Source of the DNA: Burkholderiales bacterium | GTDB taxonomy: Bacteria > Pseudomonadota > Gammaproteobacteria > Burkholderiales > SG8-39 | Assembly (NCBI GenBank): GCA_036406675.1 | Contig: DASXAO010000138.1 | Coordinates: 6,851-70,850 of the forward strand | Direction: 5' to 3' | Length of the DNA: 64,000 nt | Shown here: one piece after another, positions 365 through 18,366 of the stretch | How positions within the stretch are numbered: position 1 is the stretch's first letter | Layout of the letters: every line of letters begins with the position of its first letter | Notes under the pieces: model-generated | Told to the model about the DNA's origin: nothing | The model's database searches: none | Seen by the model: the letters and a program-made list of their open reading frames with translations, nothing else | Position numbers and translations under genes: made by a program

Positions 365-368
365 GCCC

Positions 369-1265: not shown

Positions 1266-1288
1266 TGACCAGCTCGGCGAGCCGCTAG

Positions 1289-2140
1289 ATGATCGAAGGC
1301 GCGAAGTGGAAGAAGTGGCTCTGGTTCTACCTGCCGCTGGGCGCGTTCATCTTCGGCCTGCTGTTCCCGTTCTACTGGATGGCGGTGACCACCATGCGGC
1401 CCGACGGCGAGCTCTACCGGCCGTGGAACCACCCGCTCTACTCGCCGTTCTGGACCGCCCACCCGACCTTCGACCACATCAAGAACCTGGTGCAGGAGAC
1501 GCTGTTCAACCAGTGGATGTGGAACACCATGCTGATCTCGCTCGCGGCGACGCTCATCTCGCTGGTGTGCGGCGTGTTCGCGGGCTACGCGCTGGCGCGG
1601 CTCAAGTTCCGCTACGCCGGGCTGCTCGGCACCGCGATCTTCGTCACCTACCTGGTGCCGCAGACGCTGCTGTTCATCCCGCTCGCCGACATCATCCGCG
1701 AGTACCGCCTCGGCGACACGCCCTGGGCGCTGATCCTCACCTATCCGACCTTCCTCATCCCGTTCTGCACCTGGCTGATGATGGGCTACTTCAAGACCAT
1801 CCCGAAGGAGCTCGAGGAATGCGCGCGCATCGACGGCGCGGCGCGCTGGCAGGCGATGATCTACATCATCTTCCCGATCGCGGTGCCGGGCATCCTCTCC
1901 GCCGGCATCTTCGCCTTCACGCTGTCGTGGAACGAGTTCATCTACGCCCTGGTGTTCCTTTCCTCCCCGGAGCAGAAGACCGTCCCCGTCGGCGTGGTGT
2001 CGGAGCTGATCCGGGGCGACGTGTTCTTCTGGGGGCCGCTGATGGCGGGCGCGCTGATCGGCTCGATCCCGGTGGCGATCGTCTATTCCTTCTTCGTCGA
2101 GTACTACGTCACCGGCATGACCGGCAGCGTCAAAGGCTGA
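1289..2140 (+). CDS. carbohydrate ABC transporter permease (MalG/UgpE-like)
   Basis: 283 aa ORF with an EAA loop (LEECARIDGAARWQAMIYIIFPIAVPG). It lies between the first permease and the ATPase gene. Confidence 0.85.
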   Translation: MIEGAKWKKWLWFYLPLGAFIFGLLFPFYWMAVTTMRPDGELYRPWNHPLYSPFWTAHPTFDHIKNLVQETLFNQWMWNTMLISLAATLISLVCGVFAGYALARLKFRYAGLLGTAIFVTYLVPQTLLFIPLADIIREYRLGDTPWALILTYPTFLIPFCTWLMMGYFKTIPKELEECARIDGAARWQAMIYIIFPIAVPGILSAGIFAFTLSWNEFIYALVFLSSPEQKTVPVGVVSELIRGDVFFWGPLMAGALIGSIPVAIVYSFFVEYYVTGMTGSVKG

Positions 2141-2152
2141 ATGCGGGGTTGA

Positions 2153-3216
<1,064 letters not shown>

Positions 3217-3220
<4 letters not shown>

Positions 3221-4053
3221 GCTTCCGCTATCCGATCGCCGATGCCCACATGCACGTGTGGGATCCGCACGCGCATTACTACCCGTGGCTGTGCGACGAG
3301 CGGCCGATCCCGTTCCGCTACGGCGACTACGGCAAGCTCCGACGCCGCTACCTGGTCGACGACTACCGCGCCGACACCGCCGGCTGGCGGGTGTCGCACG
3401 CGGTCTACATCGAGGCCGAGTGGGATCCGCGCGATCCGCGCGGCGAGATGGATTTCCTGGAAAGAATCAGGAAGGCGAGCTCGTTTCCGACCGTCGCCGT
3501 CGCACAAGCGTGGCTCGACCGGGAAGACTGCGCCGAGGTGCTCGAAGCGCACACGCGGCACGGCTTCGTGCGCGGCGTGCGCCACAAGCCTCGGCCCGGG
3601 ATGATGGACGATGCCCGCTGGCGCGCAGGCTTCGCGCGCCTCGCCCGGCTCGGCCTGCACTTCGAGCTGCAGGCGCCGTTCCCGCAGCTCGGGGAGGCTG
3701 CGCGCCTGGCGCGCGATTTCCCCGATACCACGATCGTGCTGAACCACGCCGGGCTGCCTTCCGCCAGCGGCGCGCGCGAATGGCGCTCGGCGATGGCCGG
3801 GCTCGCCGCCTGCTCCAACGTCGCGGTGAAGATTTCGGGCATGGGGGTCCCGGTGCGGGAATTCGTGCTCGGGGTGCTCGAGCTGTTCGGCGTCGAGAGG
3901 ACGATGTTCGCGAGCAACTACCCGGTGGACAGCCTGCGCGCCAGCTTCACGACGATCTACGCCGGCTTCGAGGAGATCACCCGCGGCATGGCCGAGGCAG
4001 AGCGCCGCGCGCTCTTCTACGACAACGCGCTGCGCATCTACAGGATGAGGTGA
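3217..4053 (+). CDS. amidohydrolase-2 family protein (COG3618-like sugar lactonase candidate)
   Basis: This is the 3' part of the 1111..4053 frame. The sequence IADAHMHVWDP...NHAG...FASNYPVD is typical of metal-dependent amidohydrolase-2 lactonases. The first ATG (3250) lies inside the HxH metal motif, so a non-ATG start upstream (CTG 3217) is suspected. The start is uncertain. Confidence 0.72.
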
Positions 4054-4056
4054 GCC

Positions 4057-4923
4057 ATGGAAGCAAAACCTTTCAAGCTCGGTTACGTCGGGGTCGGCCT
4101 GATGGGCCTGCCGATGGTGCAGCGCCTCGCCGGGCTCGGCTGGCGCGTGCGAGCCTACGACATCGTGCCGGAGCGCGTGGCTCAATCCGGAGCGCAGGCG
4201 TGTGCGTCGGCCGCCGGCGTCGCGTCCGAGGCGGACGTCGTCTTGCTCAACCTTCCGACCAACGATGCGGTCATCGATGCCATGTTCAGCCCGCGCGGCG
4301 CCGTGAAGACGCTGCGTCCGCCGCAGCTCGTGGTCGACTTCTCCACCATTCCGGTCGAGGCCTGCCGCGCCCATGCCGCGCGCCTCGAAACGGAAACCGG
4401 CTGCCGCTGGGTCGACGCCCCGGTGTCGGGCGGCCCGCCCGCGTCGGGCGCCGGGACGCTGACCGTCATGGCGGGCGGCACGGAGGCAGACATTGCGCGG
4501 CTCGCGCCGCTCATGCGCGACATCGCCGGCCGCTGCACCCGCGTCGGCCCCGTCGGCGCCGGGCTCGCCGCCAAGATGATCAACCAGCTCGTCGTCGGCG
4601 TCGGCCACGCCATGCTCGCCGAGGCGGTGGCGCTGTGCGAGAAGGCCGGCATCGACGCGGCGCGCATCCCCGATTGCCTCGCCGGCGGCTACGCCGACAG
4701 CAACCTGATGCAAGCCTACTGGCCGCGGATGGCGCAGCGCGACTTCGCGCCGCGCGGCTACGTGCGCCAGCTTCTGAAAGACCTCGAGATGGTGGCGAAA
4801 TGGGGCGGCGCGCTCGAGGCCACCACGCCCATGCTCACCCAGGCGCTGTTCCTCTATCGCGAGCTCGCGAAGCGCGGCCACGCCGAGCTCGACAGCTCGG
4901 CCATCCGCAAGCTCTACGACTAA
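4057..4923 (+). CDS. NAD(P)-dependent oxidoreductase, 3-hydroxyisobutyrate/6-phosphogluconate dehydrogenase family
   Basis: 288 aa with an N-terminal Rossmann motif (GYVGVGLMGLPM). GAGG sits upstream of the ATG, which is 3 nt after the upstream stop. Confidence 0.8.
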   Translation: MEAKPFKLGYVGVGLMGLPMVQRLAGLGWRVRAYDIVPERVAQSGAQACASAAGVASEADVVLLNLPTNDAVIDAMFSPRGAVKTLRPPQLVVDFSTIPVEACRAHAARLETETGCRWVDAPVSGGPPASGAGTLTVMAGGTEADIARLAPLMRDIAGRCTRVGPVGAGLAAKMINQLVVGVGHAMLAEAVALCEKAGIDAARIPDCLAGGYADSNLMQAYWPRMAQRDFAPRGYVRQLLKDLEMVAKWGGALEATTPMLTQALFLYRELAKRGHAELDSSAIRKLYD

Positions 4924-4980
4924 TCCCGAGATCAGGGACAGACCACGTTTCTTTTGTCCTGGCGGCCTCGTCGGCGACGA

Positions 4981-4998
4981 ATGGGACCAAGGTCCCAT
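4981..4998. repeat. short perfect palindrome ATGGGACC-AA-GGTCCCAT
   Basis: 8-bp arms read directly, in the gap between the dehydrogenase gene and the DUF2780 gene. The core GGGAC..GTCCC resembles the family-2 palindromes at 38.1 kb and 63.8 kb. Confidence 0.35.
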
Positions 4999-5054
4999 AG
5001 ATAGAGTCGCGGTGCCGCAGATACGCTAGCCGACTCATAGAAGGAGCCGACTGC

Positions 5055-5489
5055 ATGAACCGCAATCTCGCCGTTGCAGCGCTGCTAGTCTGGGCGGTCC
5101 TTCTGGCCGCCTGCTCGTCGATGGAATCGATGATGGGAATGGGGTCGAGCGCGAGCCTTCCATCCACCCTGACCAAGCAACTCGGTGTGAACGAAAGCCA
5201 GGCCGCCGGCGGAACCGGGGCGATCCTCGCGTTTGCGCAGCAAAGGCTCGCCGCCGGCGATTTCGACCTGATCGCCAAGGCGATTCCGGGCTCCGAGCAG
5301 TACCTGGGCCTGGCCAAGCAGCTGCTCGGCGGAATGAACATCAACGACAAGGCCGGACTGCAGAGCGCGTTTTCCAAGATGGGCATGAGCCCCGACATGC
5401 TGAGCAAGTTCACGCCGATCGTCACCGACTACGTCAACAAGGCGGGAGGCGCCCAGGCGGGCAGCCTGGTCGCCGGGTTGTTGAAATAG
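5055..5489 (+). CDS. DUF2780-like lipoprotein
   Basis: 144 aa with a signal peptide and lipobox (LLAAC). GAAGGAG lies upstream of the ATG. The pattern LTKQLGVNESQAAGGTGAILAFAQQRL matches my recollection of the DUF2780 family. Confidence 0.6.
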   Translation: MNRNLAVAALLVWAVLLAACSSMESMMGMGSSASLPSTLTKQLGVNESQAAGGTGAILAFAQQRLAAGDFDLIAKAIPGSEQYLGLAKQLLGGMNINDKAGLQSAFSKMGMSPDMLSKFTPIVTDYVNKAGGAQAGSLVAGLLK

Positions 5490-5492
5490 CGG

Positions 5493-6581
5493 CTATTCGC
5501 CGAGCGCGCGGTTGACGCGCGGGAGCACCTCTTCGGCCATCAGCTCCATCGACCGGCGCATCGCCTCGCGATCGGTCCAGTCGTGGCCGACGTACAGGAG
5601 CGTGCCGAACGGACCTATCACATCTCGCCAGGCGAGCAGCTTGTCGACTACCTCGTCGACCGTGCCCGCGATCAGCAGGTTCGACACCAGGTACTCGTCC
5701 GTGAGCGCCTCGTCCGGCACGGCGGGGTCATGCTTCAAGAGCGCGTTGCCGCGGGTTCTCTGCGCCTTCCTCTGTAGATTGCGGAAGTAGTAGGCGAAGG
5801 GATTGCCCGCGTCGTGCGTCATGCGACGCACGGTTGCCTTGTCGTCACCGACGAAGATGCTCTTCGCGACGCGCCAGTCCTGCGGCCGCGCAACGCGGTT
5901 CGCGCGCGCGCAGCCCTCGGCGTATTTCGGCCAGTGCGTCTTGATCACCCAGGGTTGCACGAAGTTCGCGGAGATCGGCGTCCAGCCGCGCGCGGCTGCA
6001 GCAGCGATACCGTTCGAGGCCGGCAGGATCGAAGTGACGACGATCGGCGGATGCGGCTTCTGGAAGGGCTTGAGCATCCCACCCATGCCCAGATCCGGCG
6101 CCCAGGTGCGCTCGGTGCTCAGGCGCCAGCGCTTGCCCTGCAGCCGGTAGGGCGGCTCCTGCGTCCACAGCGCGATCATGTGGTCCATCGCCTCGACGAA
6201 GATCGCGTTCCGATCCTCGTCCATCGTCTGCATCATCTCGGCGTCGGAGGGCAGCCCACCCGGCCCGACCCCGAGGATGAAGCGGCCCTCGAGCAGGGTG
6301 TCCACCATCGCGATCTCCGCCGCCGTGATCGCGGGATGGCGATTGGCCAGGTTCACCGTGCCGCTGCCGAGCTTGATGCGCCTGGTGTCGCGCGCGAGCG
6401 TGGCGATGAAGATCAGGCACGAGGTGATGGTCTCGGCGAGGTCGGTGACGTGCTCGCCGATGAACGCCTCCTCGTAGCCCAGACGCTCGGCAAGCAGCAC
6501 CGCCTCGCGGTCCTCGGCGAGGGTCTGGCGCCACTCGCGTCCGACCGCGTGCAGGGGCATCGTGAAATAGCCGAGCTTCAT
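5493..6581 (-). CDS. LLM-class (luciferase-like) flavin-dependent oxidoreductase
   Basis: 362 aa. MKLGYFTMPLH...LGYEEAFIGEH is typical of luciferase-like monooxygenases and looks like the LimB-type subgroup rather than SsuD. It starts 13 nt downstream of dctM on the same strand. Confidence 0.8.
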   Translation of the reverse strand: MKLGYFTMPLHAVGREWRQTLAEDREAVLLAERLGYEEAFIGEHVTDLAETITSCLIFIATLARDTRRIKLGSGTVNLANRHPAITAAEIAMVDTLLEGRFILGVGPGGLPSDAEMMQTMDEDRNAIFVEAMDHMIALWTQEPPYRLQGKRWRLSTERTWAPDLGMGGMLKPFQKPHPPIVVTSILPASNGIAAAAARGWTPISANFVQPWVIKTHWPKYAEGCARANRVARPQDWRVAKSIFVGDDKATVRRMTHDAGNPFAYYFRNLQRKAQRTRGNALLKHDPAVPDEALTDEYLVSNLLIAGTVDEVVDKLLAWRDVIGPFGTLLYVGHDWTDREAMRRSMELMAEEVLPRVNRALGE

Positions 6582-6594
6582 GACACTCGATTTG

Positions 6595-7914
6595 CTATTT
6601 CAGCAGCTCGGGCGCGATCAGCCTCGGCAGGATGAGCGGGATCTCCGGCCAGATGATGATCGCCGCCAGCATGAGCAGCATCGGCACCAGCATGATCACG
6701 GTGTCCTTGAGCGCGAACTTGAGCGGTACCTTCGCCACCGCGCACGAGATCATCAGGCACAGGCCGTAGGGCGGCGTCACCAGGCCGAAGGCGAGCGAGA
6801 CGATGCCGATGATCGCGAAGTGGATCGGGTGCATGTTCACCGACTGCGCGAGCGGCTGCAGGATGGTGCCGACGATGATGATCGCCGGGATCGCGTCGAG
6901 GAAGCAGCCCACCACGAGAAAGACGAAGGCGATGAAGAAGCCGACGCCGGTGATGCCCATGCCCCAGGCCGTCACGTTCGAGAGCAGCGCTTTCGGAATC
7001 TGGTAGTAGGCGAGCAGCCAGCCGAATGCGGACGCGGTGCCCACGCAGAAGAGGGCCACGGCCGACAGCCGGCCGGTCTCGAGCAGCGAGTGATAAAGCT
7101 GCTTCCAGCCCATCTCGCGGTAGAAAAAGGAGGAAAGCACCACGGCATAGAGCACCGCGATGGCGGCCGACTCCGTGGCGGTGAACCAGCCGAGCAGGAT
7201 GCCGCCGACGATGATGAACGGGGTGAAGAGCGCCGGCAGCGACTCCCACCCCGAGCGGAAGAACTCCTTGAGCGTGGCGCGCGGATAGACCGGGTAGTTG
7301 TAGATCTTCGAGTAGACATGCACGGTCGCCATCTGCGCCGCGGCGATGAGCAGCCCCGGCAGGATGCCCGCGAGGTACATGGCGCCGATCGAGGTCGAGA
7401 TCACGCCTCCCCAGACGATCATCAGGATCGAAGGCGGGATGATCACCGCGAGCACCGCCGACACTGCCGTGATGGCGATCGAGAACGAAAGGCCGTAGCC
7501 CTCCTTTACCTGCGCGTCGATGAAGATCTTCGACTGGCTGGCCGCGTCCGCGGTCGAGGAGCCCGAGATGCCGGCGAAGAACACCGACAGCAGCACGTTG
7601 ATCTGCGCCAGCGCGCCGGGAAAGTGTCCCACCATGGTGCGCGACAGCCTCACCAGGCGGTCGGTGATGCCGCCGATGTTCATCAGGTTGGCGGTGAGCA
7701 GGAAGAACGGCACCGCCAGCAGGATGAAGGAGTTGTAGGCGTTGAAAGTCTCCTGCACCAGGTTCTGCATCGAGAGCCGCTCCTCGAGGAGCATCAGTGG
7801 CAGGCAGGCGAGGCCGAGCGCGAAGGCCACCGGCACGCGCAGCACGAGGAGCACGAAAAAGACGCCGAACAGGATCAGCGCCGCGCTCGAGGGTGCGAGC
7901 AGCCCGGCGCTCAT
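6595..7914 (-). CDS. dctM: TRAP transporter large permease
   Basis: The internal ATG at 7914 gives a 439 aa polytopic protein (MSAGLLAPSSAALILFGVFF...). Its ATGA overlaps the dctQ stop. The longer 485 aa ORF has an Arg/Gly-rich non-membrane extension, which I rejected. Confidence 0.85.
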   Translation of the reverse strand: MSAGLLAPSSAALILFGVFFVLLVLRVPVAFALGLACLPLMLLEERLSMQNLVQETFNAYNSFILLAVPFFLLTANLMNIGGITDRLVRLSRTMVGHFPGALAQINVLLSVFFAGISGSSTADAASQSKIFIDAQVKEGYGLSFSIAITAVSAVLAVIIPPSILMIVWGGVISTSIGAMYLAGILPGLLIAAAQMATVHVYSKIYNYPVYPRATLKEFFRSGWESLPALFTPFIIVGGILLGWFTATESAAIAVLYAVVLSSFFYREMGWKQLYHSLLETGRLSAVALFCVGTASAFGWLLAYYQIPKALLSNVTAWGMGITGVGFFIAFVFLVVGCFLDAIPAIIIVGTILQPLAQSVNMHPIHFAIIGIVSLAFGLVTPPYGLCLMISCAVAKVPLKFALKDTVIMLVPMLLMLAAIIIWPEIPLILPRLIAPELLK

Positions 7915-8429
7915 TCCGCGGCCTTCAGGTGCGTCGCCTCGGGCTTGGGCGGCGCCCGGCCGGCGAGGACCCTCGCCGCGTCCCGCATGCGCTCGCTCTG
8001 GAACACGAGCCAGGTCAGGCCCGTGATCGGCCAGGCGACGTGGATCATCCACAGCGGCAGGTCGGCGAGCTCGGAGACGCGATTCCAGGCGAAACGCGTG
8101 AACTCCCAGCCCGCCCAGAGGAAAACGAAAGCGAAGAGCAGGATGAAGACGCCTGCCGCGAGCTGCAGCGCGGCGGTGCCCTTCGCGCCGAGCTCCGGCC
8201 AGACGTCGACTTCGAAATGCGAGCCCTCGCGCACACCGATCATCGCGCCGATCATCACCATCCAGATGAAGAGGAAGCGCGCCATTTCCTCGGTCCAGAT
8301 ATAGGCCGGGATCAGCTGCGTGTAGCGCGAAAAGATCTGCAGGCTGACCGGGACGATCAGCACCGCGACCGAGGACGCGAGCAGCCAGGACAGCAGCCGC
8401 GCGTACCAGCGCGTAATGTTCTTAAGCAA
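7911..8429 (-). CDS. dctQ: TRAP transporter small permease
   Basis: 172 aa with four hydrophobic helices and an apparent TTG start 3 nt after the dctP stop. It sits between dctP and dctM. Confidence 0.78.
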   Translation of the reverse strand: MLKNITRWYARLLSWLLASSVAVLIVPVSLQIFSRYTQLIPAYIWTEEMARFLFIWMVMIGAMIGVREGSHFEVDVWPELGAKGTAALQLAAGVFILLFAFVFLWAGWEFTRFAWNRVSELADLPLWMIHVAWPITGLTWLVFQSERMRDAARVLAGRAPPKPEATHLKAAE

Positions 8430-8432
8430 CGA

Positions 8433-9407
8433 TTACTTGATGGCGTTGATCTTGGCGTAGATCTGGTCGGCGCCGATCTCCTTCGCGTACGCCGCCATCA
8501 CCGGATCGGCGAGCTTCTTCATCTGGTCGCGGTCGGTGAACTTGACGCGCTTCAGCTTGCCCGCCTTCTCCAGCGCGACCAGCTTCGCCTCGTCCTCGCT
8601 CGACTCGAGCTTGCGGCCATAGGCGCCGGCTTCCTTGCCGGCCTTCAGGATCGCCTGCTGCATGGCCTTGTCCAATTTATTGAACGTCTTGGTCGAGAAG
8701 CAGATCGGCCGGATGGTGATCGCGTGCTGCGTGATCGAGAGCTGCGGTGCGACCTCGTAGAATTTCATCTGCTCGACACCGGCGGCCTCGTTCTCGCCGG
8801 CGGCGATGACGTTGTTCTGGATCGCGTTGTAGATCTCGTTGTAGGCGATCACGGTCGGCGCCATGCCGATGGCGGTGAAGGTCTTCGACCAGATCGGCGC
8901 GCCCTGCACGCGTACCTTGAGGCCCTTCATCTCCTTGAGGTTGCGCACCGGCTTGTTGACGAAGATGTTGCGCGTGCCGCCGCCGGCGTAGCCGATCAGC
9001 ATTACCTCGGCTTTCTGGTTGATCTCGTCGGCTACCGGCTTGAGGAGATCGGCGTCGAGCACCTTGTTCCAGTGGTCGAGGTCGCGGAACAGGAACGGCG
9101 CGTCGATGAACGGCGCCGCCTTGGAGAAGGTCGACATGTGCGCCGGCGAGACGATGCCGTAGTCGACCGCCTTGCCCTGCGCCATGTATTCGAAGTACTG
9201 CTTTTCCAGGCCGAGCTCGCTGTTCTTGTGCAGCACCCAGTTGGTCTTCTTCCCGGAATACTTGTCGGTCAGCTCCTGGAAGCGCACCAGCGCCCGCGTG
9301 AACACGTGCTCGTCGGGAAACTGCACCGCGCCGTGCAGCGTGAGCTGCGCATTCGCGTTCAGCGAGACGACGAAGCCGGCCGCGGCAAGAAGCATCCCCT
9401 TCCTCAT
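8433..9407 (-). CDS. dctP: TRAP transporter substrate-binding protein (DctP family)
   Basis: The ATG at 9407 is preceded by GGAGGAGGGGAGAT. The 324 aa protein has a signal peptide (MRKGMLLAAAGFVVSLNANA) and DctP-like sequence. Its ATGA overlaps the upstream TauD-like gene stop. Confidence 0.85.
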   Translation of the reverse strand: MRKGMLLAAAGFVVSLNANAQLTLHGAVQFPDEHVFTRALVRFQELTDKYSGKKTNWVLHKNSELGLEKQYFEYMAQGKAVDYGIVSPAHMSTFSKAAPFIDAPFLFRDLDHWNKVLDADLLKPVADEINQKAEVMLIGYAGGGTRNIFVNKPVRNLKEMKGLKVRVQGAPIWSKTFTAIGMAPTVIAYNEIYNAIQNNVIAAGENEAAGVEQMKFYEVAPQLSITQHAITIRPICFSTKTFNKLDKAMQQAILKAGKEAGAYGRKLESSEDEAKLVALEKAGKLKRVKFTDRDQMKKLADPVMAAYAKEIGADQIYAKINAIK

Positions 9408-10231
9408 GATCTCCCCTCCTCCTTGATGGTGATGCGCCACAGTGTACGCGGATCGTTCGGGTCGGTGAGCGTCGCCGAGTGCAGGAGCGAGGCGTTGTCC
9501 CAGATCACCATGTCGCCCTTGCCGTACCTGAGGCGGAGCTGATACTTCTCCTGCGTGGCATGGCGCTTGAGCTCGTCGAGCAGGTCGAGCGCCTCGTCCT
9601 GCGGCATGCCCTCGATGCCGAACGAGCTTCCCGACACCGAATACAGGGCGGTGCGCCCGGTGATTGGATGCCTGCGCGCAAGTTTGTGCCTGACCCATTT
9701 CATCTTCCCCTCCTGCTCTTCGGTCAGCACCGAGGCCACCGTGCGAGAGGACGCGTCGAGATCGTCTCGGTTGCCGTAGTGATGCAACGCAACAAGATCC
9801 CGGATCCTGGCTTTGAGGGAAGAGGGAAGATCGTCATAGGCGGCGTACTGGTCCGCGAACAGCGTGTCGCCGCCCTTTTTCGGTACCTCGATCGAATAGA
9901 GCAGCGTCGCGCGCGCCGGCACGTCGAGGTACGAATAGTCGGTGTGGAAGTAGGTGCCGGCGTCGGCCAGGCCGATCGGCTCTCCGTTCTTCTTGCGGTT
10001 GGAGAGGATGAGGATGTCCGCGTGCTCGGGATGATGGAACTGGTCGATGACGTGCGGCTCGGGCCTGCCGAATTGCTTTGCAAACCCGAGAAAACCACCG
10101 GGTGTGAACTTCTGATTGCGGAGGACCAGCACCTGAGAAGCGAAGAACGCGTCCCGGACCTCGCCAAAATCCGGCGGGATCTCGTCGGACTCGGCGCCGA
10201 AGCCGGCGCCCAGTTTTCTCAGACGCATCAT
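9404..10231 (-). CDS. TauD/TfdA family Fe(II)/2-oxoglutarate dioxygenase
   Basis: 275 aa from MMRLRK. The facial triad is visible: HTD in GTYFHTDYSY, a distal His in NASLLHSAT, and Arg in RTLWRITI. ATGA overlaps occur at both ends. Confidence 0.8.
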   Translation of the reverse strand: MMRLRKLGAGFGAESDEIPPDFGEVRDAFFASQVLVLRNQKFTPGGFLGFAKQFGRPEPHVIDQFHHPEHADILILSNRKKNGEPIGLADAGTYFHTDYSYLDVPARATLLYSIEVPKKGGDTLFADQYAAYDDLPSSLKARIRDLVALHHYGNRDDLDASSRTVASVLTEEQEGKMKWVRHKLARRHPITGRTALYSVSGSSFGIEGMPQDEALDLLDELKRHATQEKYQLRLRYGKGDMVIWDNASLLHSATLTDPNDPRTLWRITIKEEGRS

Positions 10232-11388
10232 GGCTTGATCTTCGGCACGTCGAGCCACTTCCGCAGCCTCCAGCTCTTCAGCCCGAGCTCGGCGAGCTGC
10301 ACGCCCTTCGCGCCCTCGAGCAGGTTCCAGCGGAAGGCACCTTCGTCGGCGACGTGCTTCAGGAAAAGCTCCCACTGCGCCTTGAAGGCGTTGTCGTAGC
10401 CTTCGTCCGCCATTTCCTCCCAGCCGTTGAAGAAGTCGATCGGCTGGGGAATGTCCGGGTTCCAGACCGGCTTGGGGGTCGCTTCATAGCTTTGAAAAAA
10501 GCACTTGCGCAAGCCGGCCACGGCGCTCCCCTTCGTGCCATCGACCTGGAGAGTGAGCAGATCGTCCCGCCGCACACGCACGTCCCACGAGGAGTTGAAG
10601 TGCGCCACCACGCCGCCCGCGAGCTGGAAAGTGGCGTACGCGGCATCGTCGGCAGTCGCCTTGTACTTCTTGCCGTTCTCGTCCCAGCGGTGCGGGATGT
10701 GCGTGGCGCCAAGACAGCTCACGGCCTGCACCTCGCCGAAGAGGTTGTCGAGAACGTAGCGCCAGTGGCACAGCATGTCGAGGATGATGCCGCCGCCGTC
10801 CTGCTTGCGGTAGTTCCACGAGGGCCGCTGGGCGGCGGGTTGTCCTTGCTCGCGATCTCCCTCGAACACCCAGTAGCCGAACTCGCCGCGAACCGACAGC
10901 ATGCGCCCGAAGAATCCCCGCTCCTTGAGCTTGCGCAGCTTCAACAGCCCGGGCAGCCACAGCTTGTCCTGCACGACGCCGTGTCTCACCTTCGCCTTCT
11001 TTGCGGCGGCGTAGAGTCCCTTCGCCTCGGCGAGCGTAGTGGAGACGGGCTTCTCGCAATAGATGTGCTTGCCGGCTGCGATCGCCTTTTTCAGCAACTT
11101 GGGGCGCAGCTGTGTCGATGCCGCGTCGAAGAAGACTTGGTCGTCCGTGTTCTTCAAGGCTGAATCGAGATCGTTCGTCCAGCGCTCGACGCCATGCTCC
11201 CTTGCCAATGCCTCGACCTTCGCCGCGTTGCGTCCGACAAGCAAGGGATCGGGCATGAGACGCGTGCCGTCCTTCAACGCCACGCCGCCCTGCCTGCGGA
11301 TCTCGAGGATCGACCGGATGAGGTGCTGGTTCATGCCCATGCGGCCGGTGACGCCGTGCATGATCACGCCGATGCGCTTCTCGCTCAC
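10228..11388 (-). CDS. Gfo/Idh/MocA family oxidoreductase
   Basis: The GTG at 11388 is preceded by GAGGAGGGG and gives 386 aa. It has an N-terminal Rossmann region (IGVIMHGVTGRMG) and a conserved EKP motif (HIYCEKP). Confidence 0.8.
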   Translation of the reverse strand: MSEKRIGVIMHGVTGRMGMNQHLIRSILEIRRQGGVALKDGTRLMPDPLLVGRNAAKVEALAREHGVERWTNDLDSALKNTDDQVFFDAASTQLRPKLLKKAIAAGKHIYCEKPVSTTLAEAKGLYAAAKKAKVRHGVVQDKLWLPGLLKLRKLKERGFFGRMLSVRGEFGYWVFEGDREQGQPAAQRPSWNYRKQDGGGIILDMLCHWRYVLDNLFGEVQAVSCLGATHIPHRWDENGKKYKATADDAAYATFQLAGGVVAHFNSSWDVRVRRDDLLTLQVDGTKGSAVAGLRKCFFQSYEATPKPVWNPDIPQPIDFFNGWEEMADEGYDNAFKAQWELFLKHVADEGAFRWNLLEGAKGVQLAELGLKSWRLRKWLDVPKIKP

Positions 11389-11402
11389 TCCGACGCCCCT
11401 CC

Positions 11403-12236
11403 TCAGGCGTCCAGCGCTTCCAGGATCCCGCGAATGTAGCCGATGGCGCGCGCCGCGGCACCGGGACCATCGGGCACGTAGTCGAACGGCTCGACGGCCA
11501 CGTCTCCCGCATAGCCGTGCCGCTTCAACGCGGCGAACACCGGCGCGAAGCGCTGCTCGCCCTGGCCGGGGCCGCGGCGGTTGCGGTCGTTCACCTGGAC
11601 GTGGGCAATGACGCCTTTCGGCAGCCAGCGCTCGAGCAGCGCGCCGAGGGGCTCCTTCTCCATGCGTCCCGCGGAGCTGCAGTCGAGCATCGTCTTCAGC
11701 GCGGGGTTGGAGATCTCGGCCACGATCTGCGCCGCCTCCTCCAGCGTGTTGACGAGCGGCGTCTGCTCCGACGACAGCGGCTCGACGCAGTACACCACGC
11801 CCGCTTTCTGCGCGCGCTCGGCAGCCACGGCGAAGCACTCCTTCGCGCGGGAGAGCGCCGCGGCGCGCGTTTCGCCGGCCTCGATGCGCCGCTGCTGGGG
11901 CGAGCCGTGCACCAGGTACCTTCCGCCCAACGCCGCGCACAGGTCGATGAGCGAGCGCATCACGTCCACGGTCCTCTTTCGGACCGCGTCATCCTTGCTG
12001 CAGATCGAGAGGCCGGCCGGCTTGACGAGGAGCCAGTGCAGGCCGGTCACCGCGATGCCGCTGTCTTCGGCGGCGCTGCGCGCCGCGGCAATCTGGGCGG
12101 AGCCCATGCGGTGCGGGTCCTCGGAGAGGGTATAGGGGGCGATCTCGAGCCCGTCGTAGCCGAGCTTCGCCGCGTATTCGCACTGCCGCGGAAACGGCAT
12201 CGGCGCGATCACCTCGTTGCACAGCGCGATGCGCAC
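11403..12236 (-). CDS. sugar phosphate isomerase/epimerase (xylose isomerase-like TIM barrel)
   Basis: 277 aa. MRIALCNEVI...LGYDGLEIAP is typical of the AP-endonuclease-2/xylose-isomerase-like TIM barrel family. Confidence 0.8.
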   Translation of the reverse strand: MRIALCNEVIAPMPFPRQCEYAAKLGYDGLEIAPYTLSEDPHRMGSAQIAAARSAAEDSGIAVTGLHWLLVKPAGLSICSKDDAVRKRTVDVMRSLIDLCAALGGRYLVHGSPQQRRIEAGETRAAALSRAKECFAVAAERAQKAGVVYCVEPLSSEQTPLVNTLEEAAQIVAEISNPALKTMLDCSSAGRMEKEPLGALLERWLPKGVIAHVQVNDRNRRGPGQGEQRFAPVFAALKRHGYAGDVAVEPFDYVPDGPGAAARAIGYIRGILEALDA

Positions 12237-12262
12237 GCGCTAGCTCCCCGCCGCCGGTCCGC

Positions 12263-13228
12263 TCAGTCGGCGTACACGCCGCTCTTCCGGATGATCGGCG
12301 CCCACTTCTCGACCTCCGCCTTGAGCAGCGTGCCCAGGGAGCCCGGCGTCGCCTTGGAGGGCGGGACCGGCTCGGCGCCGAGATCCGCGAGGCGCGCCCG
12401 GAAGGCCGGCGCCTGCACCGCGGTCTGCAGCGCCGCGACGAGCTTGTCGAGCGCCGGCTTCGGGATGCCCTTGGGTGCGAAGAGGCCGTTCCACACCACC
12501 AGGTCGAAGCCTTTCAGCCCTTGCTCGTCGAGCGTGGGTAGATTGGGAAACGACGCGATGCGCGTAGCCGTGGTGACGCCGTAGGCCTTCACGTTCCCCG
12601 ACTTGATCTGCGGCACGGTGTTGGTGGTCTGGTCGCACATGAAATCGACTTGCCCGCCGACCAGGTCGTTCATCGCCGGGCCGGTGCCCTTGTACGGCAC
12701 CTGGGTGAAGTCCGCCTGGACCGCGCTCATGAAGAGCAGCCCGCAAAGGTACGACGCCGAGCCGACGCCGGCGTTGGCGTAGCTGACCTTGTCCTTGTTC
12801 GCTTTTGCGTAGGCGAGGAATTCGGGAAAGTTGGCCGCCGGCGTGGCCTTCTTCGCGATCAGCATCATCGGCACGTCGGCCACCTGGCCGACGTAGTCGA
12901 AGTCCTTGAGCGTGTCGTATTGGAGCTTGCGGTACAGCGTCGGCGCCGTCGCCATGCCGATGTGGTAGAGGAGCAGCGTGTAGCCGTCGGCGCGCGCCTT
13001 CGCCGCCCTGGTGACGCCGATCGTGCCGCCGGCGCCGCCGGCGTTCTCGACGATCATCTGCTGCTTGAGCGCCTCGCCCATCGACCCCGCGAGGACCCGC
13101 GTGAGGGTGTCGGTCGGCCCCCCCGCCGCCGCCGGCACGATGATCACCACCGGCTTGGCGGGATAGTCCTGCGCGGCCGCTGCGCCGCTCGCGAGAAATA
13201 AAAAAAACGCGGCTCCGATCCGCTTCAT
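12263..13228 (-). CDS. Bug family (TctC-like) tripartite tricarboxylate transporter substrate-binding protein
   Basis: 321 aa with a signal peptide and motifs YPAKPVVIIVPAAAGGPTD and VENAGGAGGTIG. Confidence 0.85.
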   Translation of the reverse strand: MKRIGAAFFLFLASGAAAAQDYPAKPVVIIVPAAAGGPTDTLTRVLAGSMGEALKQQMIVENAGGAGGTIGVTRAAKARADGYTLLLYHIGMATAPTLYRKLQYDTLKDFDYVGQVADVPMMLIAKKATPAANFPEFLAYAKANKDKVSYANAGVGSASYLCGLLFMSAVQADFTQVPYKGTGPAMNDLVGGQVDFMCDQTTNTVPQIKSGNVKAYGVTTATRIASFPNLPTLDEQGLKGFDLVVWNGLFAPKGIPKPALDKLVAALQTAVQAPAFRARLADLGAEPVPPSKATPGSLGTLLKAEVEKWAPIIRKSGVYAD

Positions 13229-13240
13229 TCGTCGTTCCTC

Positions 13241-14212
13241 CTAGTCGTTTGCCTTGATTCCTGCCTGCTTGATCACTCTTGCCCAGCGCGGCGTCTCGCG
13301 CTCGATCGCGGCCGCGAACTGCGCCGGCGTGCCGCCGATCACGTCGAGGCCGAGGTCGTTCATTTTCCTGCGCACGTCCGGCTGGGCGAGCAGCTTGACC
13401 GTATCGCGATGCAGCCGCTCGACGATCGCGCGCGGCGTTCCGGCCGGCGCCATCAGGCCGAACCACGGCACGGCTTCGAACCCGGGATAACCGGATTCGG
13501 CCATCGTGGGAAGCTCGGGTGCGACGCCCGAGCGGCTGGCGGACGTGACCGCGAAAGCGCGCAGCTTCCCTTCGCGCACGAGCGGCACCACGTTCACCAC
13601 GTTGGCGAACGAGAGGCTGACGCGGCCGGCCAGCAGATCGGGCAGGAGCGCCGTGGTGCCGCGATACGCGACCGGGCGGATATCGATGCCGGCCATGGAC
13701 CTGAAGAGCTCCGCGGCGAGGTGCTGCGAAGTTCCGACGCCGGCGTGCGCGTAGCTGAGCGTGCCCGGCTGCGCGCGCGCCAGCGCGACGAGCTCCGGCA
13801 GCGTCGCCGCCGGAGAGCCGCTCGGCACGACCAGCACGTTTGCGGCGACGAAGATCTGCGAGATCGGCGCCAGGTCCTTGACCGGATCGAAGCTCAGCTT
13901 GTCGTACAGGCTCGGGCTGAAAACCAGCGAGCTGTTGCCGATCATGCCGAGCGTGTACCCGTTCGGCGGCGACTTGGCGAGGCGGTCGGTGGCGATGTTG
14001 CCGCCGGCCCCGGTGACGTTCTCGACCACCACCGCCTTGCCCCACGCGGTGCCGAGCCTCTCCGCGAGCAGTCGAGCGGTCACGTCGGGCGCGACGCCGG
14101 CCGTGAAGCCCACGAGAATGCGCACCGGCTGCTCGGGATAGCCGCCCTGAGCGGCCGCGTGTGCGGCAGCCGCCGCGATCCACAGCCCGGCTACTAGACG
14201 GCCGATCCCCAT
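13241..14212 (-). CDS. Bug family (TctC-like) substrate-binding protein, second copy
   Basis: The internal ATG at 14212 gives 323 aa (MGIGRLVAGLWIAAAAAHA...). Motifs are YPEQPVRILVGFTAG and VENVTGAGGNIA. Confidence 0.85.
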   Translation of the reverse strand: MGIGRLVAGLWIAAAAAHAAAQGGYPEQPVRILVGFTAGVAPDVTARLLAERLGTAWGKAVVVENVTGAGGNIATDRLAKSPPNGYTLGMIGNSSLVFSPSLYDKLSFDPVKDLAPISQIFVAANVLVVPSGSPAATLPELVALARAQPGTLSYAHAGVGTSQHLAAELFRSMAGIDIRPVAYRGTTALLPDLLAGRVSLSFANVVNVVPLVREGKLRAFAVTSASRSGVAPELPTMAESGYPGFEAVPWFGLMAPAGTPRAIVERLHRDTVKLLAQPDVRRKMNDLGLDVIGGTPAQFAAAIERETPRWARVIKQAGIKAND

Positions 14213-14604
14213 GCTTGCTGCCAGTCGTTGCCCAGGAAGTCGGTGACCCGGCCGTCGCGCTGGAAGAACTTGTTCGGGATCTGGAACATGGCGAGGAACA
14301 CGCCGCCCTGCGGGCCCGCCCAGGCCTCGTGGCGGCTGCCCGCCGGACGCCAGACGAATTGGCCTGCTTTGCAAATACCTTCCCCGCAGTGCAATTCGCC
14401 GTCCAAGACATATGTCTGCTCGATCTTCACGTGCTCGTGGTCCGGCAGGCGCGCACCGGGCGCCATGCGCATCAGGGCGGTAATGAGGCCGGTCTGCTTG
14501 TCGACGAGCAGCGTCTTCTGCTCGATGCCCGAGTAGGCCGTTTTTTCCCACGGCAGGTTTTCCACGTCGACAAATCTGGAAGCGAGATCAACGCGCCGGT
14601 TCAT
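14194..14604 (-). CDS. ChrR-like cupin domain protein
   Basis: 136 aa from the ATG at 14604, at the tail of the 14194..15849 frame. The cupin His cluster is LPDHEHVKIEQTYVLDGEL...RHEAW. Its ATGA overlaps the pyk stop, and its 3' end overlaps the Bug gene start by 19 nt. Confidence 0.65.
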   Translation of the reverse strand: MNRRVDLASRFVDVENLPWEKTAYSGIEQKTLLVDKQTGLITALMRMAPGARLPDHEHVKIEQTYVLDGELHCGEGICKAGQFVWRPAGSRHEAWAGPQGGVFLAMFQIPNKFFQRDGRVTDFLGNDWQQAWGSAV

Positions 14605-16043
14605 GATTTCAGGTGCTCCCCGACCTTTACGATCTTCATGGTGTTGGTCCCGCCCGACTTGCCGATGGGTTCGCCGATGGTGAGGACGATGATGTCGCCC
14701 TCCTTCACCACCCCGCTCGCCACCAGCGTCTTTTCGGCCTCGTGCAGCAGCTCTTCGCGGTCGTGCCCGACGTACTTGACCATCAGCGGATAGACGTCGC
14801 GTAAGAGCGCGCAGCGGTAGCGCGTCGTCGTCTGCGAGGTGAGCGCGTAGATCGGCACGCCGCAGTTGAGACGGCTCATCCACAGCGCGGTCGAGCCCGA
14901 TTCGGTCAGCGAGGCGATGCACTTCACCTTGAGGTGGTAGGCAGTGAAGAGCGCCGCCATCGCGATCGACTGGTCGACCCGCGTGAACACCCGGTTGAGG
15001 AAGTCCTGCTCGAGGTTGAGCGGCTGGGTCTGCTCCACCTCCACGCACACGCGGTGCATCGCCTCGATCACTTCCACCGGATAGCGTCCGCTCGCGGTCT
15101 CGGCCGAGAGCATCACGGCGTCGGTGCCGTCGAGCACCGCGTTCGCCACGTCCGACACCTCGGCGCGCGTGGGCACCGGGCTCGCGATCATCGACTCCAT
15201 CATCTGCGTGGCGGTGATCGTGAGCTTGTTCTGCTCGCGCGCGAGCCGGATCATCTTCTTCTGCAGCGCGGGCACCGAGGCGTCGCCGACCTCCACCGCG
15301 AGGTCGCCGCGCGCCACCATGATGCAGTCCGAGCCGCGCATGATGTCGAGCAGCGCCGCCTCGGCCACCGCCTCGGCGCGCTCGATCTTGGCGATCAGGA
15401 AGGCCTTGCCGCCCGCCGCGCGCAGCAGCTCGCGCGCCATGTACATGTCGGCGCCGCTCTTCGGGAAGGACACCGCGAGGTAGTCGGCCTGCATCTTCGC
15501 GGCCGTCTTGATGTCTTCCATGTCCTTCGAGGTGAGCGCGGGCGCGGTGAGTCCACCGCCCTGGCGGTTGATGCCCTTGTTGTTGGAGAGCACGCCGCCG
15601 TGGCGCACCACGGTCTGCACCTCGTCGCCGCGCACCTCGGTGACGTCGAGCACGATCTTGCCGTCGTCGAGGAGGAGCACCGCGCCGGGGCCCACGTCGC
15701 GCGGCAGCTCCTTGTAGTCGAGCCCGACGCGCTCCGCGTCGCCCGGTGCGCTCGACGCCGCATCGAGCACGAAGCGCCGGCCCTTCTCGAGGGTCACCCG
15801 GCCCTCCTTGAACTTGCCGACGCGGATCTTGGGCCCCTGCAGGTCGCACATGATCGCCACGGTGCGCCCCACCTTGGAGGCGATCTCCTTCACCAGCGCG
15901 GCGCGCGAAAGATGATCCTCGGTGGTGCCGTGGGAAAAATTGAGGCGCACCACGTCCAGGCCGGCGCGCACCATCCTTTCCAGGACTGCCGGTTCCGACG
16001 ACGCCGGGCCGAGCGTCGCGACGATCTTGGTGGCACGGTACAT
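14601..16043 (-). CDS. pyk: pyruvate kinase
   Basis: 480 aa. MYRATKIVATLGPAS...RLNFSHG...MVARGDLAVE is an unambiguous pyruvate kinase sequence. Confidence 0.93.
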   Translation of the reverse strand: MYRATKIVATLGPASSEPAVLERMVRAGLDVVRLNFSHGTTEDHLSRAALVKEIASKVGRTVAIMCDLQGPKIRVGKFKEGRVTLEKGRRFVLDAASSAPGDAERVGLDYKELPRDVGPGAVLLLDDGKIVLDVTEVRGDEVQTVVRHGGVLSNNKGINRQGGGLTAPALTSKDMEDIKTAAKMQADYLAVSFPKSGADMYMARELLRAAGGKAFLIAKIERAEAVAEAALLDIMRGSDCIMVARGDLAVEVGDASVPALQKKMIRLAREQNKLTITATQMMESMIASPVPTRAEVSDVANAVLDGTDAVMLSAETASGRYPVEVIEAMHRVCVEVEQTQPLNLEQDFLNRVFTRVDQSIAMAALFTAYHLKVKCIASLTESGSTALWMSRLNCGVPIYALTSQTTTRYRCALLRDVYPLMVKYVGHDREELLHEAEKTLVASGVVKEGDIIVLTIGEPIGKSGGTNTMKIVKVGEHLKS

Positions 16044-16073
16044 AGCGCTACTCAGTGTAGCAAATAGGATGCC

Positions 16074-16784
16074 TCAGACTTTTCGCGCCGCGTCGCGGCG
16101 CTGAAACAGCACCCAGCTCGTGGCGATGTACTTGTCGCCGCCCTTCGGCATGTTGCCGCGGTGCGTGTGGGTGAAGGCGGTCGGAGCGATGAGGAGCGAG
16201 CCGGTCCGGGGCACGACCTTGCGCTGCTGGTACAGGAACTCGGTTTCGCCTTCGCGGAAGTCGTCGTTGAGATAGATCGTCCACAGCACGACCCGGTGCA
16301 GCGACTCCGCCCGATCCTCCTGGTCCGGGTGCAGCTCGCAATGCCAGTACGGGTAGGCGCCGCTGTCGGCGAAATACTTCTGCAGGTTGATGGTCCCCGG
16401 ACGGAAGAGGTTCATCACCACCGCATTGAGCAGGTCGTCCGCGAGCCCGGCGAAGGCCGCCGCATCGAGCGTGACCGGCGGGCCTCCCCCTGGCGGCGTG
16501 AGCTGGAAGCGCGAAGTCGCGAGCGCCACGTGCGCGTAGCGCCTGAGATAACGCTTGAAGCCGCCAAGCACGGCGTCGACCAATAGCTGCTGCGCGTCCG
16601 CCCAGCCCGGGTGCTCGTTCAGGTGAATATCCCAGCTATCCTTGACCGAGACGTCGACACCGCCGCCGGTCAGCCCGCGCCGCGCAAGGCCGCTCGCCTC
16701 GAAACGCTCGATCAGCGCACGGCAGGCGTCTGCCTCGAGTGCGTTGTCGTAGACCTCGATGAAGTCCACAGGATCGTCGCCCAT
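16074..16784 (-). CDS. putative 2OG-Fe(II) oxygenase family protein
   Basis: 236 aa from the ATG at 16784. HxD (ELHPD) and a distal His (FTHTHRG) are consistent with a double-stranded beta-helix oxygenase. The family assignment is from memory. Confidence 0.55.
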   Translation of the reverse strand: MGDDPVDFIEVYDNALEADACRALIERFEASGLARRGLTGGGVDVSVKDSWDIHLNEHPGWADAQQLLVDAVLGGFKRYLRRYAHVALATSRFQLTPPGGGPPVTLDAAAFAGLADDLLNAVVMNLFRPGTINLQKYFADSGAYPYWHCELHPDQEDRAESLHRVVLWTIYLNDDFREGETEFLYQQRKVVPRTGSLLIAPTAFTHTHRGNMPKGGDKYIATSWVLFQRRDAARKV

Positions 16785-16804
16785 CTTGGGGACTAGTATG
16801 CTGG

Positions 16805-17204
16805 CTAGTCGCCGATGTGCAACACCAGCTCGCGCACCGATCCGCGGCGGCGGTGCTCCCAGAGATAAATTCCCTGCCACGTGCCGAGCGCAAGCTTCTC
16901 ATTCTCGATGGGAATCGAGAGCGACGTCGCCGTGAGCGCCGCTCGGATGTGAGCGGGCATGTCGTCGGGCCCCTCGGTGTCGTGCGTGTAGAACGGATCG
17001 CCCTCCGGCACGAGCCGCGCGATCCAGCGCTCGAGGTCGCGCTTCGCCGACGGGTCGGCGTTCTCCTGGATGACGAGGCTCGCCGAGGTATGCCGCACAA
17101 AAATCGTGCACAGCCCTTCCTCGATCCCGGAGTTTCTTACTTGCGATTGGACGCTGGCGGTAATTTCGTAAAGACCCTGTCCGCGCGTTTCGACGCTGAA
17201 CTGC

Positions 17205-17212: not shown

Positions 17213-18365
<1,153 letters not shown>

Positions 18366-18366
18366 C

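Follow-up and report, generated by a model that had tools for sequence, protein, structure and literature searches.

The only described architecture that joins a TauD-family dioxygenase with a transporter of the tripartite ATP-independent periplasmic (TRAP) type is the sulfo-ASDO gene cluster of Marinobacterium aestuarii and Marinomonas ushuaiensis, which encodes the dioxygenase SqoD (A0A1A9EZ58), the transporter SqoKLM, SquF and a GntR regulator (PMC10507154). We analysed a 64,000-nt stretch of contig DASXAO010000138.1 (assembly GCA_036406675.1, positions 6,851 to 70,850; hereafter the window) from an uncultured soil Burkholderiales bacterium. Seven minus-strand genes at 5493–12236 of the window encode, from upstream to downstream, a xylose-isomerase-like TIM barrel protein (TIM1), a Gfo/Idh/MocA NAD(P) oxidoreductase (Gfo), a TauD/TfdA-family Fe(II)/2-oxoglutarate dioxygenase (TauD-like protein), the TRAP components DctP, DctQ and DctM, and a luciferase-like flavin-dependent monooxygenase (LLM). 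An initial annotation of this DNA, made from the sequence alone, had placed seven open reading frames at these positions, and the families that it named agree with our Pfam assignments (E 1e-12 to 1e-96). It had also held that the combination is not a characterised pathway, which is borne out. All parts derive from known superfamilies, and the locus does not represent a novel type of system. Its composition is not matched by any characterised pathway, and none of the module's enzymes attains an equivalog cut-off in an NCBIfam profile search.

A conserved pair of TauD-like dioxygenase and TRAP transporter

Among the genes of the module, only the pairing of the TauD-like gene with TRAP genes is widely conserved. 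We kept 80 loci from 577 genome stretches with relatives, obtained in a scan that took one genome per species; genes were called for each locus, proteins were clustered and cluster representatives were annotated. The kept loci derive almost entirely from metagenome-assembled genomes (MAGs) of uncultured Burkholderiales, Casimicrobiaceae or 'Betaproteobacteria', with few isolates (Zeimonas arvi CC-CFT501, Rhodospirillaceae SYSU D60007, and Burkholderiales BURK1). Pairing was counted in the 35 loci from other organisms that had at least 5 kb on both sides ('well-flanked'). In 31 of these 35 loci, the TauD gene has a TRAP gene no more than 5 kb away, at a median distance of about 110 nt and with TauD identities of 56–84%, whereas Gfo, TIM1 and LLM genes lie within this distance in only 8, 3 and 4 loci, respectively. 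The initial annotation had treated the seven genes as one module; the compared loci show instead a patchwork of three separable units, namely TauD with DctPQM, TIM1 with Gfo, and LLM.

The pair occurs as TauD–DctPQM in the closer Burkholderiales and as DctPQM–TauD in Casimicrobiaceae, Zeimonas, the Rhodospirillaceae isolate and others. Many of the DctPQM–TauD loci are flanked by unrelated PCuAC and ZnuA/ZnuB genes, and further unrelated flanks, judged by eye only, are heme A synthase-like and anaerobic ribonucleotide reductase-like. Because its flanks are so often unrelated, we regard TauD with DctPQM as a self-contained four-gene unit. Optional but recurrent neighbours are short-chain dehydrogenases/reductases (SDRs), for which NCBIfam returned generic SDR matches only, HIBADH-type dehydrogenases, and a NAD-epimerase-family protein with amidohydrolase_2; one locus carries a LacI regulator. 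HIBADH-type genes stand beside TauD in L030, L032, L080 and L084. A protein identical to the TauD-like protein is deposited as 'MAG: Burkholderiales bacterium' and is also encoded on JGI metagenome contigs. At least 120 distinct 90%-identity clusters share at least 81% identity with the TauD-like protein, and at least 120 share at least 85% identity with DctP, both mostly from metagenome assemblies, so that the lineage carrying the two proteins appears abundant.

The TauD-like protein (9404–10231, minus strand, ATG start, 275 aa) matches PF02668 (2e-57) with 195 bits against a cut-off of 27 and covers profile positions 4–267 of 267. Its catalytic residues H96, D98, H251 and R262, described as intact in the initial annotation, are indeed invariant in the family and align with H99, D101, H255 and R266 of TauD. 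R266 is likewise family-invariant; its counterpart in TauD is Arg270, which binds the sulfonate or carboxylate. Identity to E. coli TauD is 28% and the ligands of the taurine amine are not kept (TauD Tyr73 is F65, and Asn95 is G92). With NCBIfam, the protein scored 134.7 bits against a cut-off of 313 for taurine dioxygenase (NF007104) and 133.5 against 400 for ScoE. We rejected an identity as taurine dioxygenase on the former score and on the retention of Arg270 as the only taurine ligand. The nearest solved structures are 6l86 and ScoE (1e-37), followed by aryloxyalkanoate dioxygenases, i.e., (R)-phenoxypropionate/2,4-D dioxygenases (1e-28 to 1e-24), and TauD (1e-23).

The transporter is a complete DctPQM set with all components above their family cut-offs (NCBIfam for DctP and DctM, Pfam for DctQ). 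DctP (8433–9407, minus strand, ATG start, 324 aa; PF03480) has a signal-peptide-like N-terminus and scores 165 bits with TRAP_S1 (cut-off 50), DctQ (7911–8429, minus strand, TTG start, 172 aa) scores 95.7 bits with PF04290 (3e-27; cut-off 28.3), and DctM (6595–7914, minus strand, ATG start, 439 aa; PF06808, 1e-95) scores 351.6 bits with TIGR00786 (cut-off 268). The closest solved relatives of DctP are PDB 4nx1 and 4ovp (E 1e-97, about 49% identity), of which 4ovp is the binding protein EFI-510292 of Sulfitobacter sp. NAS-14.1 according to a Foldseek look-up. The isethionate solute-binding protein 8t9t matches at just 1e-21. DctP retains the Arg of the conserved GGGTRN motif, and orthologues with 49–57% identity sit in SDR/uxuA/sugar-kinase clusters. 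The cluster of the Sulfitobacter orthologue has the order SDR–aldehyde dehydrogenase–TRAP–uxuA–sugar kinase; the Ponticoccus orthologue adjoins an SDR, and an SDR orthologous to the latter (53% identity) is found again next to the transporter in several TauD loci. Import of an anionic substrate by the TRAP transporter, as first proposed for an organic acid, is the sensible reading. AlphaFold2 models of the TauD-like protein and DctP, built with 15–16 close homologues, had a mean pLDDT (predicted local distance difference test score) of 40 and 43, respectively, and no structural inference is drawn from them.

TIM1 and Gfo derive from a separate cassette

TIM1 (11403–12236, minus strand, GTG start, 277 aa) belongs to PF01261 (1e-35). 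Its best NCBIfam models are a ketose 3-epimerase (D-psicose 3-epimerase, 81.9 bits) and the 5-keto-L-gluconate epimerase IolO (78.3 bits), both with cut-offs of 300, and its nearest solved structures are ketose 3-epimerases (about 1e-18). Assignment of TIM1 as an equivalog of ketose 3-epimerase, IolO or hydroxypyruvate isomerase was rejected on these cut-offs, and only its PF01261 membership holds. Gfo (10228–11388, minus strand, GTG start, 386 aa) matches PF01408, PF22725 and PF02894, and the EKP and GGG…D…H motifs are legible in its translation. NCBIfam gave 67 bits for levoglucosan dehydrogenase (cut-off 650) and 61 bits for IolG (cut-off 355). Neither an LgdA/DgpA-type nor an IolG equivalog is therefore accepted, and the analogy first drawn to 3-keto-sugar pathways (DgpA with DgpBC, LgdA with LgdB) reduces to membership at the superfamily level. 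The closest match of known structure is PDB 3oqb (E 7e-171), a structural genomics entry named just 'Oxidoreductase'.

Gfo orthologues with 65–69% identity are encoded on plasmids of Paroceanicella, Azospirillum, Rhizobium, Nitratireductor, Chelatococcus, Chimaeribacter and Erwinia. Annotated examples have the gene order TetR–TIM1–'enolase C-terminal domain-like'–Gfo–DUF993–TIM2, in which DUF993 (PF06187) is annotated as 'dihydrodipicolinate synthase family'. Such cassettes lie, for example, on plasmids of Paroceanicella (L087, 7777–13158), Chelatococcus (L089, 8616–13288) and Chimaeribacter (L088, 9095–14493), and they extend over Alpha- and Gammaproteobacteria, including Rhizobium, Azospirillum and Rhodobacterales. 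They use tripartite tricarboxylate transporters, NMT1-type ATP-binding cassette (ABC) transporters or major facilitator superfamily transporters, and contain no TauD and no TRAP genes. Plasmid-borne cassette proteins are 64% (DUF993), 59% (TIM2), 44% (enolase-like) and 45% (TIM1) identical to those of the MAGs; TIM1 of the window is also 45% identical to the first TIM barrel protein of the Paroceanicella cassette. Neither the enolase-like nor the DUF993 protein is covered by an NCBIfam model, and the searchable literature contained no mention of DUF993/PF06187 and nothing relevant on 3OQB. As judged by these orthologues and their gene order, TIM1 and Gfo of the window are a remnant of the separate, widespread cassette TIM1–enolase-like–Gfo–DUF993–TIM2, and the view of the seven genes as one conserved module is not supported.

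LLM is a predicted diketocamphane-monooxygenase-type protein

LLM (5493–6581, minus strand, ATG start, 362 aa; PF00296) has 3,6-diketocamphane 1,6-monooxygenase (4uwm) as its best solved relative (1e-27, residues 3–356) and is predicted to be, like the diketocamphane monooxygenases, a flavin monooxygenase of the two-component type. Its plasmid-borne homologues in Marinovum, Paracoccus, Phaeobacter and Agrobacterium vitis (39–52% identity) have a flavin reductase in every cluster, and none of these clusters is of a sulfonate type; alpha/beta hydrolases are also present in the Marinovum and Paracoccus clusters. LLM follows DctM, with or without TIM2 between them, only in close relatives of the window.

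The initial annotation had judged LLM not to be SsuD-like and had proposed to place it and the TauD-like protein by profiles. The SsuD model TIGR03565 gave 19.8 bits against a cut-off of 518, in agreement with this judgement, and, like the taurine dioxygenase score above, lies far under its cut-off. A role as SsuD/SmoC alkanesulfonate monooxygenase was rejected on this score and on the lack of a flavin reductase gene in the window (tblastn). A role as sulfoquinovose monooxygenase was rejected on the non-sulfonate clusters of the Phaeobacter and Agrobacterium vitis plasmid homologues. No flavin reductase and no sulfite oxidase homologue was found by tblastn in the window, in line with the absences first reported; a sulfite exporter was not searched for.

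The window carries a reduced mosaic operon

Many Burkholderiales MAGs carry a fuller form of the operon, TetR–TIM1–enolase-like–(VOC)–Gfo–DUF993–TauD–DctPQM–TIM2–LLM–(zinc-dependent alcohol dehydrogenase), in many cases with an NMT1-type ABC transporter or TctCBA in front of it, and confirmed by independent gene calls with precomputed Pfam annotation. L093 has both the GAPDH–PGK–YjbQ–PK–cupin–TctC context of the window (PGK, phosphoglycerate kinase; PK, pyruvate kinase) and a ten-gene form with 4-nt overlaps; a single TctC gene occupies the TctC position of the window, where other relatives have a full TctCBA or NMT1-type ABC transporter. L093 and the MAGs with the full form thus show the TauD–TRAP unit embedded within the Gfo cassette. 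Three cassette genes (enolase-like, DUF993 and TIM2) are cleanly gone from the window, from contigs identical to it and from L005, and tblastn with the enolase-like, DUF993, TIM2 and VOC proteins gave no match anywhere in the 64-kb window. Only TIM1 and Gfo are thus left of the five-gene cassette that is complete in L093; of the partners lost, DUF993 and TIM2 are those best conserved in the cassette. At least six further loci (L011, L015, L021, L024, L048 and L083) likewise have no DUF993 gene between Gfo and TauD, and Gfo still lies directly beside TauD.

The metagenome contig L092 (367 kb) carries the full operon, but its DUF993 gene is broken into ORFs of 259 and 137 aa (8854–10010) and TIM2 is cut to fragments of 51 and 109 aa (13641–14430), while TauD, DctPQM and LLM are intact. 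Decay of the cassette portion thus seems to be under way in several lineages.

Compared with L005, all seven genes of the window have dN/dS values of 0.025–0.25 (TIM1 0.025, Gfo 0.14) and are under purifying selection, which argues that the reduced operon is in use. The TauD-like gene stands out in the same comparison to this closest other MAG, with a dS of 0.89 and 84% amino acid identity, whereas its neighbours have dS values of 0.13–0.34 and identities of 91–99%. This divergence suggests an allelic replacement by recombination inside the operon. DctPQM alleles also fall into distinct types among otherwise syntenic contigs. The G+C content of the Gfo, TauD and DctP genes (window positions about 8000–11400) is 0.62–0.64 compared to 0.67–0.71 in flanking genes, and the third-codon-position G+C content (GC3) of TauD (0.82) is the lowest of the run (others 0.87–0.95). 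The low G+C content of the central genes would fit an origin that is distinct from, or later than, that of their surroundings.

Gene layout and genomic context

The ATGA overlaps at 10228–10231, 9404–9407 and 7911–7914 were confirmed by direct reading of the sequence, as were the other gaps of 14 nt (TIM1–Gfo), 3 nt (DctP–DctQ) and 13 nt (DctM–LLM). Gene calls on identical metagenome contigs match all seven ORFs, including the TTG start of DctQ, except for the start of DctP, which the JGI call puts at the ATG at 9395, four codons downstream, so that the TauD/DctP overlap disappears. We favour the overlapping start because most of 120 homologues are 323–325 aa long. Translational coupling had been taken as a mark of the module but is not distinctive. 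Across the whole window, for which gene calls were GC3-based, same-strand gaps have a median of 14 nt and 26 of 41 are at most 30 nt; tight spacing is the norm in this genome, and packing by itself therefore cannot define a seven-gene unit. Promoter- and terminator-like sites showed no excess over shuffled controls in the window, and an Rfam scan of the window found zero RNA families.

The module ends a co-directional run of 17 genes (5493–21938), in which it is preceded by genes for two Bug/TctC-family solute-binding proteins (PF03401; 12263–13228 and 13241–14212, minus strand, with gaps of 26 and 12 nt), a cupin, pyruvate kinase, a 2-oxoglutarate-oxygenase-domain protein, YjbQ and PGK. It is uncertain whether the co-directional Bug/TctC pair belongs to the operon. 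The module sits directly downstream of this PGK–YjbQ–(2OG-FeII_Oxy_3)–pyruvate kinase–cupin_7 string (14194–21938, minus strand), a glycolytic context common to L005, L009, L017, L024 and L093; the 2OG-FeII_Oxy_3 gene (about 16074–16769) is present in the window and L005 and absent from L093. On the other side, a convergent plus-strand operon (8–5489) stops 3 nt from the LLM stop codon. It encodes a sugar-type ABC transporter (solute-binding protein, two permeases and MalK-like ATPase), an amidohydrolase_2 protein (3250–4053), a HIBADH/tartronate-semialdehyde-reductase-like dehydrogenase (4057–4923) and a DUF2780 protein (5055–5489). The same convergent operon adjoins the module in L011 and L012, and a functional tie between the two is possible.

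Putative function and alternative explanations

Our best explanation, which we put forward tentatively and as possible rather than probable, is that the genes form a co-transcribed mosaic catabolic operon whose TauD–DctPQM core acts on an anionic sugar-like acid, most likely of the hexuronate type. DctP would capture this solute, which may also be a substituted derivative of such a sugar acid, and DctQM would carry it into the cell. TauD, TfdA and AtsK hydroxylate a carbon that is separated from the bound anion by one or two atoms; because the family hydroxylates near a bound anion, attack beside a carboxylate or sulfonate is expected. The Fe(II)/2-oxoglutarate dioxygenase would accordingly hydroxylate the carbon beside the anionic group, and a carbonyl product would arise via collapse of the hydroxylated centre or loss of a substituent. 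Gfo could then catalyse an NAD(P)-dependent redox step on a sugar hydroxyl or carbonyl of the product, TIM1 a metal-dependent epimerase or isomerase step on a keto-sugar, and LLM an FMNH2-dependent Baeyer–Villiger-type oxygenation with a flavin reductase encoded elsewhere, the order of these three steps being conjecture. In evolutionary terms, the TauD–TRAP unit would have entered the Gfo cassette, after which the window lineage would have lost three cassette genes.

We favour a uronate-type substrate because the DctP orthologues lie in the SDR–aldehyde dehydrogenase–TRAP–uxuA–sugar-kinase cluster or beside an SDR, because the Ponticoccus-like SDR recurs beside TauD–TRAP units, and because the host cassette consists of acid-sugar-type enzymes (enolase superfamily, dihydrodipicolinate synthase-like, dehydrogenase and TIM barrel proteins). 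The Arg of the DctP GGGTRN motif, R266 of the TauD-like protein, the LacI regulator at one locus and the epimerase models matched by TIM1 would also suit an anionic sugar acid.

Several points weigh against this explanation. In five well-flanked loci (L036, L057, L058, L075 and L084), neither DctP nor DctM was detected within 5 kb of the TauD gene, whose products are 57–69% identical to the TauD-like protein; a DctP-like gene is still adjacent in L084, and the flanks of L057 and L075 match those of DctPQM-bearing loci, which suggests secondary loss of DctPQM. At 49% identity, the specificity of solute-binding proteins can differ. The ligands of 4nx1 and 4ovp are presumed to be D-taluronate and D-mannuronate, and the searchable literature contained nothing relevant on 4NX1/4OVP or on taluronate or mannuronate with TRAP. 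The searched literature likewise contained no Fe(II)/2-oxoglutarate enzyme acting on uronates ('uronate dioxygenase'), and fuller operons include SsuA-like NMT1 binding proteins. The three units each exist independently, so that co-location need not mean one pathway. The precedents for TauD-family enzymes with TRAP transporters are sulfonate enzymes (SqoD; PMC10507154).

A more specific proposal, by analogy and in our view quite improbable, is that the TauD-like enzyme is a uronate C5-dioxygenase that would oxidatively open the pyranuronate ring to a 5-keto-uronate. In a pyranuronate, the carboxylate and the ether oxygen of the ring are both attached to C5, and this O–CH(R)–COO- grouping is also the one that TfdA and RdpA attack in phenoxyalkanoates. 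The 5-keto-uronate would be an alpha-keto acid with a free aldehyde, which Gfo, SDR or HIBADH-type enzymes might reduce or oxidise and an IolO-like TIM barrel protein might epimerise. In a variant, the enzyme would oxidatively remove a substituent, e.g., the methyl group of 4-O-methyl-glucuronate, and ordinary uronate catabolism would follow.

Use of an organosulfonate or sulfate ester, in a sulfo-ASDO-like manner, is an unlikely alternative to the hexuronate-type substrate. The TRAP transporter would import a sulfonated sugar or short sulfonate, the TauD-like enzyme would hydroxylate the sulfur-bearing carbon to yield sulfite and an aldehyde, Gfo would reduce or oxidise this aldehyde in the role of SquF, and LLM would take that of a second desulfonating oxygenase; stand-alone TauD–TRAP units would be a TRAP-based counterpart of tauABCD for sulfur scavenging. 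The SqoD cluster is the precedent for this architecture, similarity of the TauD-like protein to the sulfonate and sulfate-ester enzymes TauD and AtsK can be detected, and R266 aligns with a sulfonate ligand of TauD, but the taurine amine ligands are absent and the TauD model score falls far short of its cut-off. NMT1/SsuA-family ABC binding proteins in the fuller operons would fit sulfonates as well, whereas the closest relatives of DctP lie in uronate-type and not sulfonate clusters and the isethionate-binding protein is a distant match. Four-gene units with unrelated flanks suit nutrient scavenging, and the HIBADH family, whose genes recur nearby, includes sulfolactaldehyde reductase; Pfam and gene calls, however, show no SquF-type aldo-keto reductase and no GntR regulator in the cluster. 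The negative tblastn search for sulfite oxidase and flavin reductase in the window, the SsuD score of LLM and the carbon-catabolic, non-sulfonate clusters of its homologues all speak against desulfonation, and a 2026 review lists sulfo-ASDO for Gammaproteobacteria only.

It is similarly doubtful that there is no single pathway at all and that TauD–DctPQM, a decaying Gfo cassette and LLM were brought together by insertion and deletion at a single site of the chromosome and are merely co-transcribed. Every unit does occur alone elsewhere, the cassette is decaying in relatives (L092) and has lost three genes in the window, TauD has a separate history as seen from its dS, DctPQM alleles differ between syntenic contigs, and tight spacing is the genomic norm. 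Against such an assembly of independent units, the nested order with 4-nt overlaps is repeated in many species-level MAGs, Gfo lies immediately upstream of TauD even where DUF993 is missing, and strong purifying selection acts on TIM1 and Gfo even though the operon is reduced.

A cleavage reaction as in TfdA/RdpA or ScoE, directed at an O- or N-(carboxyalkyl) compound, is very unlikely. The imported acid, for example an aminopolycarboxylate, a molecule resembling an opine, or an ether with a carboxymethyl or lactyl group, would carry X–CH(R)–COO-, and hydroxylation of the alpha-carbon would release glyoxylate or pyruvate and an alcohol or amine. In favour, ScoE-type and phenoxypropionate/2,4-D dioxygenases rank before TauD among the structural relatives, the ScoE model gives 133.5 bits, and LLM-family enzymes with NtaB-type reductases are known to dealkylate aminopolycarboxylates, but every score is far under the family cut-offs, DctP relatives and neighbouring genes (Gfo, TIM barrel, enolase-like and dihydrodipicolinate synthase-like proteins) indicate sugar chemistry, and no glyoxylate-handling gene is adjacent.

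The TauD–TRAP unit and the Gfo/DUF993 cassette are both conserved and abundant. If the TauD–TRAP unit acts on a sugar acid, it would represent a new reaction type of Fe(II)/2-oxoglutarate dioxygenases and a new oxygen-dependent branch of acid-sugar catabolism; if the C5 proposal is true, it would be an unprecedented O2- and 2-oxoglutarate-dependent entry into hexuronate breakdown that is widespread in uncultured soil Betaproteobacteria. If the substrate is a sulfonate instead, oxygenolytic desulfonation with TRAP import would reach Betaproteobacteria beyond the marine Gammaproteobacteria. The question is directly testable in the cultured Zeimonas arvi CC-CFT501, which has the minimal DctPQM–TauD unit (L080). 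A clean target for function discovery is also offered by the TIM1–enolase-like–Gfo–DUF993–TIM2 cassette, for which the structure of the Gfo member is solved (3oqb).

Comparison with known systems

The window resembles the sulfo-ASDO cluster in a PF02668 Fe(II)/2-oxoglutarate dioxygenase gene beside a TRAP transporter for a (in the window putative) anionic sugar and in an NAD(P)-dependent oxidoreductase within the cluster; TauD and DctP of the window overlap by ATGA. It differs in that no aldo-keto-reductase or GntR domain is present in the cluster genes or their neighbours, that the regulator, where present, is TetR, that TIM barrel, Gfo and LLM genes are added, and that the host belongs to the Betaproteobacteria and not the Oceanospirillaceae. 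SqoD is reported to be 18% identical to E. coli TauD, compared to 28% for the window protein. With E. coli tauABCD the window shares a translationally coupled importer and TauD-family dioxygenase and the ligands of Fe, 2-oxoglutarate and the anion-binding Arg, whereas its importer is of the TRAP and not the ABC type, the amine-binding residues differ and the score is under the equivalog cut-off.

The Gfo cassette found elsewhere has homologous Gfo (65–69%) and TIM1 (about 45%) proteins and the enolase-like, DUF993 and TIM2 genes that the window lacks. Type II FMN-dependent two-component Baeyer–Villiger monooxygenases (4uwm) match LLM over its full length, and LLM homologues likewise neighbour flavin reductases; similarity is low, the window has no reductase or esterase gene, and a compound derived from camphor is certainly not the substrate. 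The uronate-type TRAP loci of the Roseobacter group (Sulfitobacter pontiacus, a Ponticoccus plasmid and 4nx1/4ovp) have, like the window, a full DctPQM set, with DctP 49–57% identical to that of the window. A TauD-like gene is absent from these loci, which encode an SDR, an aldehyde dehydrogenase, UxuA and a sugar kinase, whereas in the window and its relatives the partner conserved alongside the transporter is the dioxygenase.

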